A DNA stretch of 64,000 bases, from sequence record MG589383; one strand, given 5' to 3'. This document shows positions 10,383-39,097 of this stretch, one piece after another. The DNA is from Shigella phage phi25-307. Every line of letters starts with the position of its first letter. Position 1 is the first letter of the stretch. The notes under the pieces were generated by a model. The model ran no database searches and was not told the DNA's origin. It was given only the letters and a program-made list of their open reading frames with translations. The position numbers and the translations under genes are program-made.

Positions 10383-13094
10383 TCAAAAATCGAACATATC
10401 GAACAGAGATGCTTTCTTCTCGTAATCGAGTTTCGCTGCTGATGTGAATCCTTCAAGTGGTTTAATAAATGTCTTCTCAAGGAGAACAGTGTAGTCCATC
10501 CAATGAAGTACGTCGTCTTTAATTAAATCTGTGATTTCAGTACCAGAAGGCCATGCGATACATTTATCACCGAATGGGTTTCCTTCACGTAAAGGCAGAA
10601 CATATACTTTTTCACCTTCTACAACTTGTGGTGCATCGATATTACCTTTGATAGCACGGTTATACGTCAGAATTCCACGAATATGGAACGGGCATTTGGG
10701 ACCAGGGAATCCACCTACATCGTATTTAGCAATGTTATTCGCAGAAGATACCGACGCGATGCTAATATAATTCAATTGACGGAATTCTTTTTCAAACTCT
10801 TTAAAATATTCTTGTAATGATTCTTCACCTTCTTGAAGCATACGACGAATACATTCTTTAAGAGCTTTCTGTACTGCTTTAGGAGTCGAAGATTTCTGAG
10901 TCTCTAGACCCATGATTTTGAGTTTAGGCTCAGCGTAACGAGTACCTTCCATATCCCATACGTTTAATGCATAACGTTTCTTACCAGTCCAGAATCCACC
11001 AATACCTTTAGAACCAAGTGGAGGCCCAGCGATAGCTTCTCGGTCCATGAACATTAAGTGTTGTTTATTGTTCATGTATTCACACATTTCACGGAAACCT
11101 CTATCAATAGCTGGTTCCATACGTTCACGTGCAAACTTATCTAAGAAGTCTACCCAATGGTTGGTATCACGGAATTTAGATTCACCAACCTTATCGATAA
11201 TTTTATCAGCAGATACGTAAATAGAGTCTGTATCACCATAAAGAACGAAAGCTTCACCTTCTGTACCGCAAACTTCATTCAGATATTCATTAACTTTACG
11301 TTCAATCCACTGTAAAGCCATTTGTCCGAATGTTGTGATTGCAGTAGCATTACGCAAATCATAATAACGGAACCAAACGTTGCCAAGTGCACCATAAAGT
11401 GAGTTGATAAGCAATTTACGGTTAATTTGGGCAGTCATACCTGCAACTTCAGTACGTTGAGCTCTAAACAACATTTCATTAAGAGATTTAGCAGACAACT
11501 TTTTAATCTTTTCTTTAATCTCATCGCTGAAGTCGAAACGATAATCAACATCTAATGGTTCGTCAACAGAAAGATTAGGATTATGCAATGCCTCTTTAAT
11601 TATTTCACCATTACGTTGAGCTGCAAGCATGTAACCTTTATGTTCTTTACGTTGATTAAAGACCTTAGTGATTTCAGTTGGAACTACACCATCACGGTCT
11701 TTATAATACATCATGCCGTTAGGAGAACAACTGTACACATCAGAAGGACGTTCAGCAACAGCGTTAATATAATCATGCAATGGAGCTACTTTAAACGTTC
11801 CTGCTATTGTTTCTGGGCTAATATTCACTTGGCGAATAATACTTGGATACAGAGATGTAAGGTCGAAACTCATTACATATTTGTATCGATTTGGAATAGG
11901 TTCCTTAACAAAAGCGCCAGGATAAGGTTGAACCGGGTGAGAACGACCTTGTGGAATCACCTTGTTCTGCTCTTTAAGGCTATTAAAAATAATAGCATCC
12001 CATGTTTTAATTGGGCTAAATACAGATTGAATCTGAATTTTAGCATAATAACCCATGTCCAAACTCAAGTTGATGAACTGACGCTTAGCATCAATTTGCA
12101 ATACACGATACACATCGATAATGTTATAAGAAATATATCGTTGGTGATTGCTTTCACGAAGCTTAGAAATAGGGCCGTCATATTTCAGTTTACCAACGTT
12201 CAATTCAAATTCTGAAATGTAATCCAGAGAATATGACGGTTGATTGGTAAAAGAGAATTTTTTGTAAAGGTCAATGTAATCAAGAACAGAGATACCGAAC
12301 AATGTAATGATTTCACGAGAACCATACATGTTTTCGATAACTTTAACACGAGTTTTACGATGTGGTGATAAACGTTTCGCAGTAGATTCGCCAAAAATAT
12401 TCTTGATTCGGTTATACACATACGGAATATCAAATGACTCAACGTTCCATCCAGTCAAAATGACAGGAGTTTTCTGTTGCCAGAAGTTGAGATATTCCAT
12501 CAACAATTCTTTTTCGTTATCGAACGGCATATAAATGATTTTATCGATAATTTCGGATGGAACTTCATCACCACCTTGTTCTTGAAGCTTAGCCGCAATT
12601 TCGATAGACCATTCTTCTACATTACCATATGGAGAATTCAATAGATCAAATACGTAGAACCTGTCGTCAATTGAGTCATAATGGGTGATAGCATCAATCG
12701 GATGTTTTGCTTGTGAAGGCTCAGGGAACCCATCCGGAGATGTTACTTCGATGTCGAAGTTAGCCGCACGAATTTTTGTATGGTCGTATTTGATTTCATA
12801 GTTATAAGTGTCAGACAAATACGCCAATTTGAAATCGTCCATGCCAAGTGCTTCAAGACCGATATCTTCCATGCGTTTAATCCATTGGGAGGCATCACGC
12901 ATATTAGCGAACAACTTACGAGTACACGGCTTACCGTAGATATCGAAATATTTCGTAGCCTGACTTTCCGGACAATGAGCAAACAGTGATGGTTTATATT
13001 CTACTTCACGAGTACGTTCACGGCCGTTAGAATCGATGTAACGTTCAAAAATTGAATCACCAATCTGTTCAACCGTTAAGTAAAATTCTTTCAT
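10383..13094 (-). CDS. 43: DNA polymerase gp43 (family B)
   Basis: 903 aa; exo motifs FDIEV, NIIDVYRVL; YGDTDS polymerase motif; matches recalled RB69 gp43. Confidence 0.97.
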   Translation of the reverse strand: MKEFYLTVEQIGDSIFERYIDSNGRERTREVEYKPSLFAHCPESQATKYFDIYGKPCTRKLFANMRDASQWIKRMEDIGLEALGMDDFKLAYLSDTYNYEIKYDHTKIRAANFDIEVTSPDGFPEPSQAKHPIDAITHYDSIDDRFYVFDLLNSPYGNVEEWSIEIAAKLQEQGGDEVPSEIIDKIIYMPFDNEKELLMEYLNFWQQKTPVILTGWNVESFDIPYVYNRIKNIFGESTAKRLSPHRKTRVKVIENMYGSREIITLFGISVLDYIDLYKKFSFTNQPSYSLDYISEFELNVGKLKYDGPISKLRESNHQRYISYNIIDVYRVLQIDAKRQFINLSLDMGYYAKIQIQSVFSPIKTWDAIIFNSLKEQNKVIPQGRSHPVQPYPGAFVKEPIPNRYKYVMSFDLTSLYPSIIRQVNISPETIAGTFKVAPLHDYINAVAERPSDVYSCSPNGMMYYKDRDGVVPTEITKVFNQRKEHKGYMLAAQRNGEIIKEALHNPNLSVDEPLDVDYRFDFSDEIKEKIKKLSAKSLNEMLFRAQRTEVAGMTAQINRKLLINSLYGALGNVWFRYYDLRNATAITTFGQMALQWIERKVNEYLNEVCGTEGEAFVLYGDTDSIYVSADKIIDKVGESKFRDTNHWVDFLDKFARERMEPAIDRGFREMCEYMNNKQHLMFMDREAIAGPPLGSKGIGGFWTGKKRYALNVWDMEGTRYAEPKLKIMGLETQKSSTPKAVQKALKECIRRMLQEGEESLQEYFKEFEKEFRQLNYISIASVSSANNIAKYDVGGFPGPKCPFHIRGILTYNRAIKGNIDAPQVVEGEKVYVLPLREGNPFGDKCIAWPSGTEITDLIKDDVLHWMDYTVLLEKTFIKPLEGFTSAAKLDYEKKASLFDMFDF

Positions 13095-13106
13095 TTAATT
13101 TCCTTT

Positions 13107-13122
13107 AGACGAGTTATTGTCT
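13107..13122 (-). promoter_or_regulatory. gene 43 translational operator hairpin (stem AGAC/GUCU, loop AAUAACUC)
   Basis: minus strand AGAC-AATAACTC-GTCT then AAAGGAAATTAA-ATG; loop identical to the known T4 gp43 operator loop. Confidence 0.6.
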
Positions 13123-13150
13123 TTTGTTTGTTGATGAACTTATTATACTC

Positions 13151-13168
13151 CAAATGGGACCGAAGTCC
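13151..13168 (-). terminator. hairpin ATGGGAC-UUCG-GUCCCAU between regA and 43 (terminator or RNA-stability element)
   Basis: 7 bp stem with UUCG tetraloop on minus strand; weak U-tract. Confidence 0.4.
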
Positions 13169-13175
13169 CATTGCT

Positions 13176-13544
13176 TTAATTACCAATTGTATATTTTGCT
13201 TTCAAAGTCCAGTCATCTTTCTGTTTAAAAGAGATAACACGGAAGTTATTAGTCAGGCCAAACAGATCTTCACGAGCAGAGTCTTCAATAACAATCAATC
13301 CCCATTCTTCAAGCAACTGGGCAATCGAATCACGTCGCTGATAGTCTTCACCGTCAATATCAACCTGACGTCCATCCATACGCAACATTTCTTTAAAGTG
13401 GACGATATAGTACTTACCTTGCTTTTGGAGGATATGACAAGACTGGTAAAGGACTTTATCCTTGTTATTAGCGATGCCCATACGAGTCAGAGTCTCTTTG
13501 ACTTTCAGAAAATCTTCAGGGTTCTTCAATTTAATTTCAATCAT
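13176..13544 (-). CDS. regA: RegA translational repressor
   Basis: MIEIKLKNPEDFLKVKETLTRMGIANNKDKVLYQSCHIL... matches T4 RegA; ATG at 13544. Confidence 0.85.
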   Translation of the reverse strand: MIEIKLKNPEDFLKVKETLTRMGIANNKDKVLYQSCHILQKQGKYYIVHFKEMLRMDGRQVDIDGEDYQRRDSIAQLLEEWGLIVIEDSAREDLFGLTNNFRVISFKQKDDWTLKAKYTIGN

Positions 13545-13546
13545 TT

Positions 13547-14110
13547 TTACCATTCCAATGCTAATTTTTTAAATTGTTTTTGTTCTTTCACATTTTTTGT
13601 AACTTCTTTGAGAAACTCATCAGTGACCATGGCCTTCAGTTCTTTAAGGACTATTGGCAACTTGTTATTTTTTTCAAGGAGCCGCTTATACTCAGTAGCA
13701 TCATTCATGTTGATTGTGTAATGTTTCATCAACAGTTTGATAACTAGTAACTCTGAAGTGTCTTCGACTAGTTTAGCCCATTTAGAGAATCGACGACCAC
13801 GCGGAATTGCCGCCATCATATAGTTGAAGTGCGCTTCATCACTTAATTCAGAACCGACTAAGTTCATCATGTAAACAGCTGGCATACATTCTGGGAACTG
13901 GGATAATGAGTTCTCAACCATAAATTTTGAGTAGTCGACCTGAGCAATTGACATAGATTTCTTTTCATTAATAGCATTAATGATTTTAAAGAATTCATTC
14001 TCAGGTTTTTCTTTAAACATATCAGCACATTTTTGAATCGCATCGGCGTCATTAGACTTCCATGCAATTTGGTGCTCGTTAAGCTGGACGTCATCATCGA
14101 ATAAGTTCAT
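13547..14110 (-). CDS. 62: gp62 clamp-loader small subunit
   Basis: 187 aa, position between regA and 44. Confidence 0.8.
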
Positions 14111-24999: not shown

Positions 25000-26813
25000 T
25001 GGTGTTTAACCCTATGCATGATTTCTTTATTTTTGCCAAGATTAAATCCGCGTTCGTTCGGATTTCCCAAATAGCCACATGTTCTTCTTATTGTGTTCAT
25101 CTTTTTAGGATCAGTTTCTCCGCAAACTGAACAAACAAATCCGTTTTCAGTAGGAGTCATTTCATGGGTACTTCCGCATGTAAAACATTTATCTACTGGC
25201 ATATTAACACCAAAATAATCTAAATGTTGTGCAGCATAATCCCAGACAGCCTCAAGACCTTTTAAGTTATTTTTCATATCAGGAAGTTCAACATAAGAAA
25301 TGTGTCCACCTGTTGCAATGAAATGATATGGGGCTTCGCGAGAAATCTTTTCAAATGGAGTAATATTTTCTTCTACTGAAACGTGGAAACTATTAGTGTA
25401 CCAGCCTTTATCAGTGACATCCTTTACACTTCCATATTTTTCTGTGTCGAGTTTACAGAAACGATAACACAAGTTTTCAGCAGGAGTAGAATACAAGCTA
25501 AAAGCAAAACCGGTTCTTTCAGTCCACTGCTTAAGACGAGCATTCATTTTAGTCAAAATTTCTTGCCCAATATCACGTCCGACAAGAATATTCAATTCGT
25601 GAATACCAATGTATCCTAAAGACACTGAACTTCTACCGTTTTTAAATAACTCAATTATGTCGTCATCAGGTTTAAGACGAACCCCGAATGCACCTTCTTG
25701 GTAAAGAATAGGAGCAACAGTAGCTTTAACTCCTTTTAAGGAACTAATTCTACACATCAAAGCTTCAAAACACAGATCCATTCGTTCATTAAATAGCTCA
25801 ACAAATTTCTGTTCATTGAACTGTGTTCCAATATAAGAATCTAACGCAATACGAGGAAGATTCAGTGTTACAACACCAAGATTATTACGTCCATCAAGAA
25901 TTTCATTACCAGTCGAATCTTTCCATACACTCAAGAAACTACGACAACCCATTGGAGAAACAGGAATAGATGAACCGGTGATAGCTTTATTATTCTTAAC
26001 TGAAATAATATCAGGATACATTCTTTTGCTTGCACACTCTAGAGCAAGCTGCTTAATATCATAGTTCGGATCGTCTTTATAAAGATTAACACCTTCTTCA
26101 ACGAACATAACAAGTTTAGGGAAAATAGGAGTTATCCCGTCGCGACCAAGACCTTTAATACGATTTTTAAGAATTGCCTTCTGAATAATTCGTTCAGTCC
26201 AGTCAGTTCCAGTACCAAATGTGATTGTTACAAAAGGCGTTTGTCCGTTTGAACTAAAGAGAGTATTTACTTCGTATTCATACGCTTGGAATGCATCGTA
26301 TACGTCTTTTTCTGTTTTAGATTGGGCATAATTCAACGCATCAGCGATTTGCCATTTTTCTGCATCCTCAATATGTTTTGCATAGGTGCGTTTAACATAA
26401 GGAGAAAGAACTTTATCGACATTCGCAAATGTAGTTCCACCATACTGATGCGAAGCAACTTGTGCAGTAATTTGTGCCATAATTGCAGTAGCAACGCCAA
26501 TAGATTTAGGTGTTTCAATTTGAGCATTACCTAGCTTAAATCCATTCTCAAGCATCCCCTTTAAATCTACTAAACAGCAATTAGTAAATGGAAGAGCAGG
26601 AGAATAATCAATATCATGGAAATGGATAATTCCACTTTCATGTGCTTTCATAATAAAAGACGGGACCATATTTTTGGCAATGTGCTTAGACACAATACCA
26701 GCCATAAGGTCCCGTTGAGTTGGAAAAACACGAGAATCTTTATTAGCATTCTCGTTCAAAAGATCTTTATTAGTTTTATTAATTAATCCTTCAATTTCTT
26801 TTTCAATTTTCAT
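24996..26813 (-). CDS. nrdD: anaerobic ribonucleoside-triphosphate reductase
   Basis: 605 aa; C-terminal glycyl-radical motif RRTCGYLG and Zn-Cys cluster; uninterrupted frame. Confidence 0.95.
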   Translation of the reverse strand: MKIEKEIEGLINKTNKDLLNENANKDSRVFPTQRDLMAGIVSKHIAKNMVPSFIMKAHESGIIHFHDIDYSPALPFTNCCLVDLKGMLENGFKLGNAQIETPKSIGVATAIMAQITAQVASHQYGGTTFANVDKVLSPYVKRTYAKHIEDAEKWQIADALNYAQSKTEKDVYDAFQAYEYEVNTLFSSNGQTPFVTITFGTGTDWTERIIQKAILKNRIKGLGRDGITPIFPKLVMFVEEGVNLYKDDPNYDIKQLALECASKRMYPDIISVKNNKAITGSSIPVSPMGCRSFLSVWKDSTGNEILDGRNNLGVVTLNLPRIALDSYIGTQFNEQKFVELFNERMDLCFEALMCRISSLKGVKATVAPILYQEGAFGVRLKPDDDIIELFKNGRSSVSLGYIGIHELNILVGRDIGQEILTKMNARLKQWTERTGFAFSLYSTPAENLCYRFCKLDTEKYGSVKDVTDKGWYTNSFHVSVEENITPFEKISREAPYHFIATGGHISYVELPDMKNNLKGLEAVWDYAAQHLDYFGVNMPVDKCFTCGSTHEMTPTENGFVCSVCGETDPKKMNTIRRTCGYLGNPNERGFNLGKNKEIMHRVKHQ

Positions 26814-38281: not shown

Positions 38282-38488
38282 TTAGCCAGTATTTATTTTT
38301 CGCCTTTGGACGGCCTTAACATCTGTGAGGTATTTTTCCAGCTTGCGCTTGCGTGTATAATCAGCTTTAGAACCAGTTTGACGGATATCCTCGTTTAAAT
38401 GAGAAATAGAATGTCCTAATTCTCTTCGGATTTCATCCAATTGGGTTACAGTAAGATTACGAAGTTGTTTTTCGTTTAATTGCTGCAT
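38282..38488 (-). CDS. hypothetical protein (68 aa)
   Basis: ORF. Confidence 0.45.
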
Positions 38489-38515
38489 ATATACCTCTTG
38501 GTTAGATATTAGTAT

Positions 38516-39097
38516 TTATAACAACCCTGTCAAATCATTCCAATGCTTCCGGCATAATGACACATATCTATCAGTATCACCAATTTCAATTTGACTGCCA
38601 TCTGTAATTGGAAGTCCGTCTTCAGTGACTCTAGCTACCATTGTGGCCTTTTTACCACAATGACAGACACCTTTAAGTTCAACAAGCTTATCGGCAATAG
38701 CCATTAATGCTTGAGAACCTTCAAATAGATTACCTTTAAAATCTGTTCGTAGTCCATATGCCATTACCGGCACATTGTATACGTCAACAATACGACTAAG
38801 TTGATACACCTTTTCAGTAGTTAAGAACTGAGCTTCGTCAACAAATACACAATGAATATCCTTTTGTGCTGTAGCCCATTTATAGAATTCAAAGATATCC
38901 ATGTCTTTTGTAATTATATTGGCGTCCTGACGAATACCAATACGAGAGACTATTTCACCTTTTGAATCGCGAGTATCAATAGCCGGTTTAAGAACTAATA
39001 CACCCATGCCACGTTCTTTATAGTTATGGGCGGCAGTCAAAAGAGAAGCAGATTTTCCAGCATTCATTGCTGCATAAGTAAAAATTAAACTCGCCAT
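38516..39097 (-). CDS. tk: thymidine kinase
   Basis: 193 aa; P-loop AAMNAGKS, VDEAQF, C-terminal CxCG...C..H zinc motif. Confidence 0.9.
   Translation of the reverse strand: MASLIFTYAAMNAGKSASLLTAAHNYKERGMGVLVLKPAIDTRDSKGEIVSRIGIRQDANIITKDMDIFEFYKWATAQKDIHCVFVDEAQFLTTEKVYQLSRIVDVYNVPVMAYGLRTDFKGNLFEGSQALMAIADKLVELKGVCHCGKKATMVARVTEDGLPITDGSQIEIGDTDRYVSLCRKHWNDLTGLL

Follow-up and report, generated by a model that had tools for sequence, protein, structure and literature searches.

A hairpin in the gene 43 leader of Shigella phage phi25-307 very probably is the RB69-type operator of an autoregulated DNA polymerase

The leader of the DNA polymerase gene in Shigella phage phi25-307 raises the question whether a small hairpin in front of the start codon serves the polymerase as an operator, and whether such an operator differs from those already described in T-even phages. 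We analysed a stretch of 64,000 nucleotides from sequence record MG589383, referred to here as the window. An initial annotation, made from the letters of the window, had placed a gene 43 translational operator immediately upstream of the polymerase Shine-Dalgarno (SD) sequence and had taken it as a sign of autogenous translational repression. From sequence comparison, we conclude with high confidence that the hairpin is the operator through which an RB69-type phage (genus Mosigvirus) controls translation of gene 43; it would be bound by gp43, which in this way would repress its own synthesis. The operator sequence is identical to that of RB69, which is already known, and for the window it holds no new biology. 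The comparative material that was collected around it is of wider use and is described below.

Two genes enclose the leader:
13176..13553, minus strand: regA, a translational repressor gene and the upstream neighbour of gene 43 (Pfam Translat_reg, E 2.6e-59)
10383..13094, minus strand: gene 43, family-B DNA polymerase of 903 aa, the regulated gene and presumed repressor (ORF, PDB, Pfam and RB69 comparison)

In the initial annotation the hairpin had been used to support the polymerase call, and this call is borne out by the protein itself. The 903-aa ORF matches RB69 DNA polymerase structures over residues 1-903 (PDB 1clq, 1ig9 and many others) and contains the Pfam domains DNA_pol_B_exo1 and DNA_pol_B. 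Compared to gp43 of RB69 (NC_004928), a single one of the 903 residues differs, A110 in the window and V110 in RB69. Codon 110 of gene 43 (12765-12767, minus strand) belongs to the N-terminal part, shortly ahead of the exonuclease motif (FDIEV, residues 113-117). RegA of the window also shows one amino acid difference to RB69 RegA (E83 here, D83 in RB69), and the clamp-loader subunit gp62 is likewise encoded upstream (Pfam). The locus is the T-even replication cluster of gp62, regA and gene 43. A megablast search with the window returned Mosigvirus genomes, the nearest being HY126 (99.1%) and ST0 (98.9%). The regA-43 stretch has 44 mismatches to RB69 in 3171 nt, corresponding to 98.6% DNA identity, and the intergenic region of 81 nt between the two genes is without any mismatch to NC_004928. 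A leader of 101 nt (13085-13185) is found with at least 99% identity in 150 Mosigvirus genomes, while an 801-nt stretch that includes the coding flanks (12800-13600) is found with 95-99% identity in 151 genomes and reaches at least 99% in one only. Thus, the leader is more tightly constrained than the adjacent coding sequence. The annotation of the window is confirmed in that gene 43 encodes an RB69-type polymerase with the known autoregulatory operator.

The operator consists of two parts:
13107..13122, minus strand: gene 43 operator hairpin AGAC-AAUAACUC-GUCU (sequence, minimum free energy (MFE) structure, RB69 identity, covariation and covariance-model match)
13095..13106, minus strand: single-stranded 3' part of the operator, AAAGGAAAUUAA, including the Shine-Dalgarno sequence AGGA (sequence; unpaired in the MFE structure)

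The coordinates of the hairpin had been given exactly in the initial annotation, and the strand is corrected here, the feature lying on the minus strand. As DNA it reads AGAC AATAACTC GTCT, with the 5' arm at 13122-13119, the loop at 13118-13111 and the 3' arm at 13110-13107. Directly 3' of the hairpin follows AAAGGAAATTAA, with the SD sequence AGGA at 13104-13101. The distance from the end of the hairpin is 2 nt to AGGA and 12 nt to the AUG of gp43 (ATG at 13094-13092, minus strand). The 4-bp AGAC/GUCU stem that had been proposed around the loop, just upstream of the polymerase SD, is seen in the sequence and in the ViennaRNA prediction alike: the MFE structure of the 51-nt leader is exactly this 4-bp stem with its 8-nt loop (-3.2 kcal/mol), and the SD stays unpaired. 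The 37-nt leader RNA with the operator is AACAAAAGACAAUAACUCGUCUAAAGGAAAUUAAAUG, and no pseudoknot appears in the gene 43 leader folds of the window. From the hairpin to the AUG the operator spans 28 nt. The RNA of 36 nt that had been suggested for binding assays has the length of the T4 operator, in which the spacer measures 18 nt and not 12 nt, and this detail does not apply here. The element lies at the gene 43 ribosome-binding site (RBS), has a stem within the range of 4-5 bp and an 8-nt loop, and carries the loop AAUAACUC with the central UAAC; sense-strand covariation, recognition by a profile and identity to a characterised operator add to this.

Operators of this kind have been described. 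Uzan and Miller, in their review, present gp43 as a translational repressor of its own synthesis, whose RNA target is made up of an upstream hairpin and the sequence overlapping the RBS; the hairpin comprises 18 bases in T4 and 16 bases in RB69, with the same loop (PMC3014915). The RB69 operator RNA is bound by RB69 gp43 and crosslinks to its palm (DNA-binding) domain, and in the -UAAC- centre of the loop the 3' AC bases matter for gp43 binding (PMC3014915). The polymerases of T4 and RB69 are both RNA-binding autogenous repressors with unlike RNA specificity, and their binding of RNA and DNA is mutually exclusive (PMC535899). According to Gold's memoir, it was this hairpin loop of gene 43 that was randomised for the first SELEX experiment (PMC4661202), in agreement with what the initial annotation had stated about the use of this loop. 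Compared with the RB69 operator, the whole intergenic region including the 16-nt hairpin, the SD and the spacing is the same in the window; nothing differs in the RNA, and the genome is that of another Mosigvirus isolate. This RB69 operator was reportedly characterised by Wang, Pavlov and Karam in 1997 (JBC) and by Petrov and Karam in 2002 (NAR), and the T4 operator is said to have been described by Andrake et al. in 1988 and to have been the SELEX target of Tuerk and Gold in 1990. Wang et al. 1997 are reported to have found that T4 gp43 accepts its own operator only, whereas RB69 gp43 binds the operators of both T4 and RB69.

The comparison with T4 needs some differentiation. The T4 genome (L019) reads AGCCU-AAUAACUC-GGGCU at the same place, and the claim of an identical loop is therefore correct; also shared are the position before gene 43 and the combination of a hairpin with a single-stranded SD segment. 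However, the stem of T4 has 5 bp (AGCCU/GGGCU) with a U.G closing pair, whereas that of the window has 4 bp (AGAC/GUCU) closed by C-G. In the covariance-model alignment this amounts to the loss of the U.G pair and one switch from C-G to A-U. The T4 operator spans 36 nt with a hairpin-AUG spacer of 18 nt, compared with 28 nt and 12 nt in the window. Thus, the likeness to T4 holds for the loop, but the phage is RB69-like and not T4, so that the element is the already-studied RB69 operator. The top 10 bases of the hairpin are given as identical between T4 and RB69 in the review (PMC3014915), and the genome sequences show 9 of 10, with U.G as closing pair in T4 and C-G in RB69 and in the window.

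Could a stem of four base pairs have arisen by chance, as an inverted repeat without function in a leader rich in A/T? The parts of the hairpin are unremarkable when taken singly. The fold z-score of -1.2 (51-nt leader) is not significant thermodynamically, and some hairpin with 4 bp and an 8-nt loop is possible at 2.3% of the window positions. The 8-mer AATAACTC occurs in two copies in the 64-kb window, compared with 3.8 expected, and is not enriched; the second copy, at 25645 (plus strand), has no flanking stem. Neither the stem alone nor the 8-mer alone is above chance. For their joint occurrence, 400 first-order Markov simulations covering both strands gave an expectation of 0.10 per 64 kb for this loop enclosed by four pairs, which scales to ~5e-5 for loop plus stem within the 60 nt that precede gene 43. 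This joint expectation speaks against a chance repeat, as do the invariance of the leader in 150 genomes, the compensatory covariation over 21 variants and the first rank given to the site within the window by an independent covariance model. The comparative data and the independent model put the hairpin far above chance, and the chance reading, effectively refuted by the comparative data, retains next to no probability.

The comparative data derive from gene 43 junctions of 16 named T4-like phages that span the range of identities, together with T4 and RB69 and with 55 IMG/VR loci that were found via alignment of the gp43 N-terminus. A loop of the form AAU[A/C/U]ACU[C/U/G] or AGCAACCU is located within 50 nt of the start codon in 57 of 74 junctions, in 24 unique 24-mers. 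The loop is nearly invariant (AAU[A/C/U]ACUC), with A, C or U at position 4 as natural variation, and the stem changes on both sides. Sequences for the covariation alignment were picked and anchored by the loop motif, and the stems played no part in the selection. The following stems were found:
AGAC/GUCU: window, RB69, Dhakavirus and others
AGUC/GACU: L026-28
AGGC/GUCU: L032
AGCCU/GGGCU: T4 and L055
AGACU/GGUCU: Moonvirus and Roth19
AGACC/GGUCU: Karamvirus
AGUCC/GGACU: Kanagawavirus
GACC/GGUC: Winklervirus
GGUCU/GGACC: L062
UUCU/GGAA: L052, L056 and L058

Across 21 aligned variants, standard pairs occupy 85.7% of the cells, compared with 56.6 +/- 3.3% in shuffles, and 31 cells are changed on both sides, compared with 9.2 +/- 2.4 in shuffles. 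The observed values for paired cells or double changes are attained by none of 500 shuffles. The covariation score is 0.789, and shifting the 3' partners by one to three columns lowers it to 0.233 or less. The same 4-bp stem is returned by RNAalifold from the 21 variants without a supplied structure. Clean compensatory switches can be followed directly where close relatives have the same flanks, namely between Dhakavirus (AGAC/GUCU) and L026 (AGUC/GACU), between T4 (AGCCU/GGGCU) and Merlin (AGACU/GGUCU), and between AGUCC/GGACU and AGACC/GGUCU. A U.G closing pair is present in 9 of the 21 variants; on the opposite strand this would be A.C, hence the selected structure is the sense-strand RNA. 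We are not aware of any earlier formal covariation support for the gp43 operator RNA. The comparative set provides such support for the original SELEX target RNA and shows which loop positions vary naturally.

Recognition by a profile was examined with a covariance model built from 13 variants, from which the window/RB69 sequence and all AGAC/GUCU stems had been excluded. The model was run over the whole window on both strands (128 kb) with filters off, and its best match is 13104-13125 on the minus strand (20 bits, E ~0.01), the RB69-type stem corresponding in the alignment to the four outer pairs of a T4-type stem. The remaining matches in the window have E values of at least 0.1 and the wrong loop length. 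Second among them is 38488-38518 (minus strand, E 0.1), located before a 68-aa ORF; with its 15-nt loop and mere A/U-rich similarity it was dismissed as a chance match. An Rfam 15 scan of 12500-13800 with E up to 10 yielded no gp43-operator family and chance-level unrelated matches only. Among the 17 junctions without the loop motif, the sole notable matches of the model are L068:332-354 and L065:126-147, both of the Acinetobacter type (AGCCU-AAUCAC(U)-GGGU/AGGCU, sharing UAUAGCCUAAUCAC), and no RB49-type operator was found in JSE. Both matches lie 150-375 nt upstream of gene 43 and were rejected as operators. The match in L068 is inside a small coding ORF, the two are in homologous sequence, and they are probably a coincidence in coding sequence.

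The identity of the 81 nt to RB69, the covariation and the model match support the initial reading of the element as gene 43 translational operator. Its sequence, position, structure and covariation, and its identity to RB69, are observed in the data presented here; for binding and repression we rely on the literature on the identical RB69 RNA (PMC3014915, PMC535899). The presence of a gp43 gene alone would be no proof, because some T4-related polymerases do not autoregulate (PMC3014915). In the most probable mechanism, the hairpin, weak with its 4 bp, exposes the loop AAUAACUC immediately 5' of the SD, and free gp43 would bind this loop together with the adjoining single-stranded SD region, via the surface that otherwise holds DNA. 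Bound gp43 would then block 30S binding and repress its own translation. Engagement on primer-template DNA would make gp43 release the mRNA, and polymerase synthesis would be coupled to the demand of replication. The A110 variant of gp43 in this isolate is expected to behave like RB69 gp43. A comparable principle is known from the gene 32 operator of T4 and RB69, where a replication protein that is free of DNA represses its own mRNA and where the RNA and DNA sites of the protein overlap (PMC3014915, PMC535899). In contrast to gene 43, for which a pseudoknot has not been reported, the gene 32 operator combines a 5' pseudoknot with a long unstructured A/U-rich tract and cooperative binding (PMC3014915).

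The neighbourhood of regA suggests another candidate repressor, since RegA might act on the A/U-rich segment between SD and AUG (GAAAUUAAAUGAAA), instead of gp43 or besides it. RegA, like gp43, is a phage protein in competition with 30S subunits for the initiation region, and its gene is adjacent to gene 43. RegA sites are A+U-rich, unstructured and variable and lie at or next to the AUG, as in T4 gene 44 (AAAUUAUGAUU) and in the RB69 RegA SELEX consensus (AAUAAUAAUAAnA) (PMC3014915). In the window, GAAAUUAAAUG in the SD-AUG spacer and GAAAUUAAAUGAAA, the spacer with the start (13095-13100, minus strand), resemble the RegA sites listed in that review (PMC3014915). However, a repressor with variable sites that lack secondary structure leaves unexplained why the hairpin before gene 43 covaries and keeps its loop. 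RegA could at most be a second repressor at the AUG and not a replacement for the operator, and we regard a RegA target as very improbable. Gene 43 is not known to belong to the classical set of RegA-sensitive T4 messages.

Upstream of the gp43 operator, the leader contains two further elements:
13153..13172, minus strand: UUCG-capped 8-bp hairpin AAUGGGAC-UUCG-GUCCCAUU, terminator-like or 3'-end hairpin (sequence and fold)
13142..13151, minus strand: GGAG (13151-13148) followed by a -10-like TATAAT (13147-13142) (conservation among Tevenvirinae junctions)

The separate UUCG-capped hairpin had been noticed 30 nt upstream in the initial annotation, and this is accurate: it occupies 13172..13153 (minus strand), starts 3 nt past the regA stop, and the gap to the operator stem (13152..13123) is exactly 30 nt. 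In T4 and its relatives, GC-rich hairpins with UUCG or similar loops are located at the same place, mostly with better U-runs. The hairpin of the window has a short sense-strand U-run only (GUCCCAUUUGG), T4 and the Dhakavirus relatives being better in this respect, and the T-run rule of the terminator scan holds for it on the plus strand only. Possible roles of the UUCG hairpin are weak termination with read-through or stabilisation of regA transcripts at their 3' end. Between it and the operator, GGAG-TATAAT is kept as (G)GAGTATAAT in most Tevenvirinae junctions (L001-L007, L019 and others). It may represent the -10 of a promoter for a short gene 43 leader, a RegB cleavage motif, or both. A sigma-70 scan of the window region did not call the sense-strand TATAAT and found no -35 match to it. 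An antisense sigma-70 match at 13117-13146 (plus strand) overlaps the operator; it is weak, at chance level, and was discarded. The -10-like hexamer of L033 and L052 directly adjoins the 5' arm of the hairpin, so that a transcript begun there could not hold the whole hairpin. On the strand opposite to regA, 13171-13195 (plus strand) reads TTGCTTTA-(11 nt)-TATATT, which resembles a T4 middle promoter with MotA box and -10. This stretch overlaps the C-terminal codons and the stop of regA, and its conservation may therefore reflect coding constraint.

The GGAG-TATAAT element bears on a further reading of the hairpin, namely a cis element that works independently of protein and without a role for gp43, as a 5'-proximal hairpin for mRNA stabilisation or processing. 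If the TATAAT at 13147-13142 were a promoter, the hairpin would be ~13 nt from the 5' end, and RegB processing stimulates gp43 synthesis (PMC3014915), with a GGAG just upstream. Yet 4 bp with -3.2 kcal/mol make a poor protective structure, and a loop that is near-invariant while the stem is free to change across genera fits a protein that recognises the loop sequence. Moreover, binding of gp43 to the identical RB69 RNA has been reported (PMC3014915). A purely cis-acting hairpin is for us hardly credible, and an operator recognised by gp43 is the reading we prefer.

The loop motif was found in Tequatrovirus, Mosigvirus, Dhakavirus, Kanagawavirus, Winklervirus, Moonvirus, Karamvirus and several unclassified Tevenvirinae. 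In the junctions examined, such a hairpin at the RBS was not found for Acinetobacter phages (Twarogvirinae), Krischvirus (JSE), Pseudotevenvirus, Slopekvirus, a large vibriophage, Biquartavirus and Ceceduovirus, consistent with the remark on T4-related polymerases that do not autoregulate (PMC3014915). Serratia phage 4S (L132:~270-314) has the exact AGAC-AAUAACUC-GUCU before gene 43, and its upstream gene is a homing endonuclease and not regA. Going by this arrangement, it is gene 43 and not regA that the operator accompanies.

A different loop occupies the operator position in Muldoonvirus. All four examined genomes of this genus, VP8 (Cronobacter) as well as Muldoon, SP1 and PS2 (Serratia), contain GUCC-(G)AGCAACCU-GGAC ~33 nt upstream of gene 43 (L009:650-690 in Muldoon, L049:~455-480 in PS2, L130 and L131 for VP8 and SP1). 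The PS2 element folds into a 6-bp stem with a CAAC tetraloop (-8.7 kcal/mol). AGCAACCU appears to be the loop of the SELEX "major variant" for T4 gp43, reportedly obtained by Tuerk and Gold in 1990. The major variant is described to have four changes among the eight loop nucleotides (PMC4661202) and a -CAAC- centre, and its use by natural phages was posed as a question in 2010 (PMC3014915). Both published constraints, the four changes and the -CAAC- centre, agree with AGCAACCU. A scan of IMG/VR for the 16/17-mer GTCC(G)AGCAACCTGGAC gave 50 matches, among which only two are T4-like (PS2 and Muldoon); the others are in unrelated contigs, in roughly the numbers that we estimate to arise by chance in a collection of this size. 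The literature searched contained no report of a natural major-variant operator, and full-text searches with the loop strings returned unrelated siRNA/miRNA papers only. We are evenly divided on whether the gp43 operator constitutes a covarying RNA family of at least eight Tevenvirinae genera, without an Rfam entry, whose natural sequence space includes the SELEX major variant. If true, the question of the 2010 review on a natural -CAAC- variant would be answered, and the two winners of the SELEX experiment would be two natural solutions. The Muldoonvirus clade, provided that it uses the major variant, would offer a natural system for RNA specificity that co-evolves with a DNA polymerase. The Muldoonvirus observation might be the only item here that is worth a separate follow-up. 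One further deviation from the usual loop was seen in the IMG/VR locus of a T4-like phage (L034:~440-470, IMGVR_UViG_2974736276), where AGCC-ACAC-GGCU at the operator position is followed by the usual AUAAACUAAGGAA. Its stem is T4-like and a 4-nt loop stands in place of the 8-nt AAUAACUC, and this hairpin may be a degenerate or re-specified operator.
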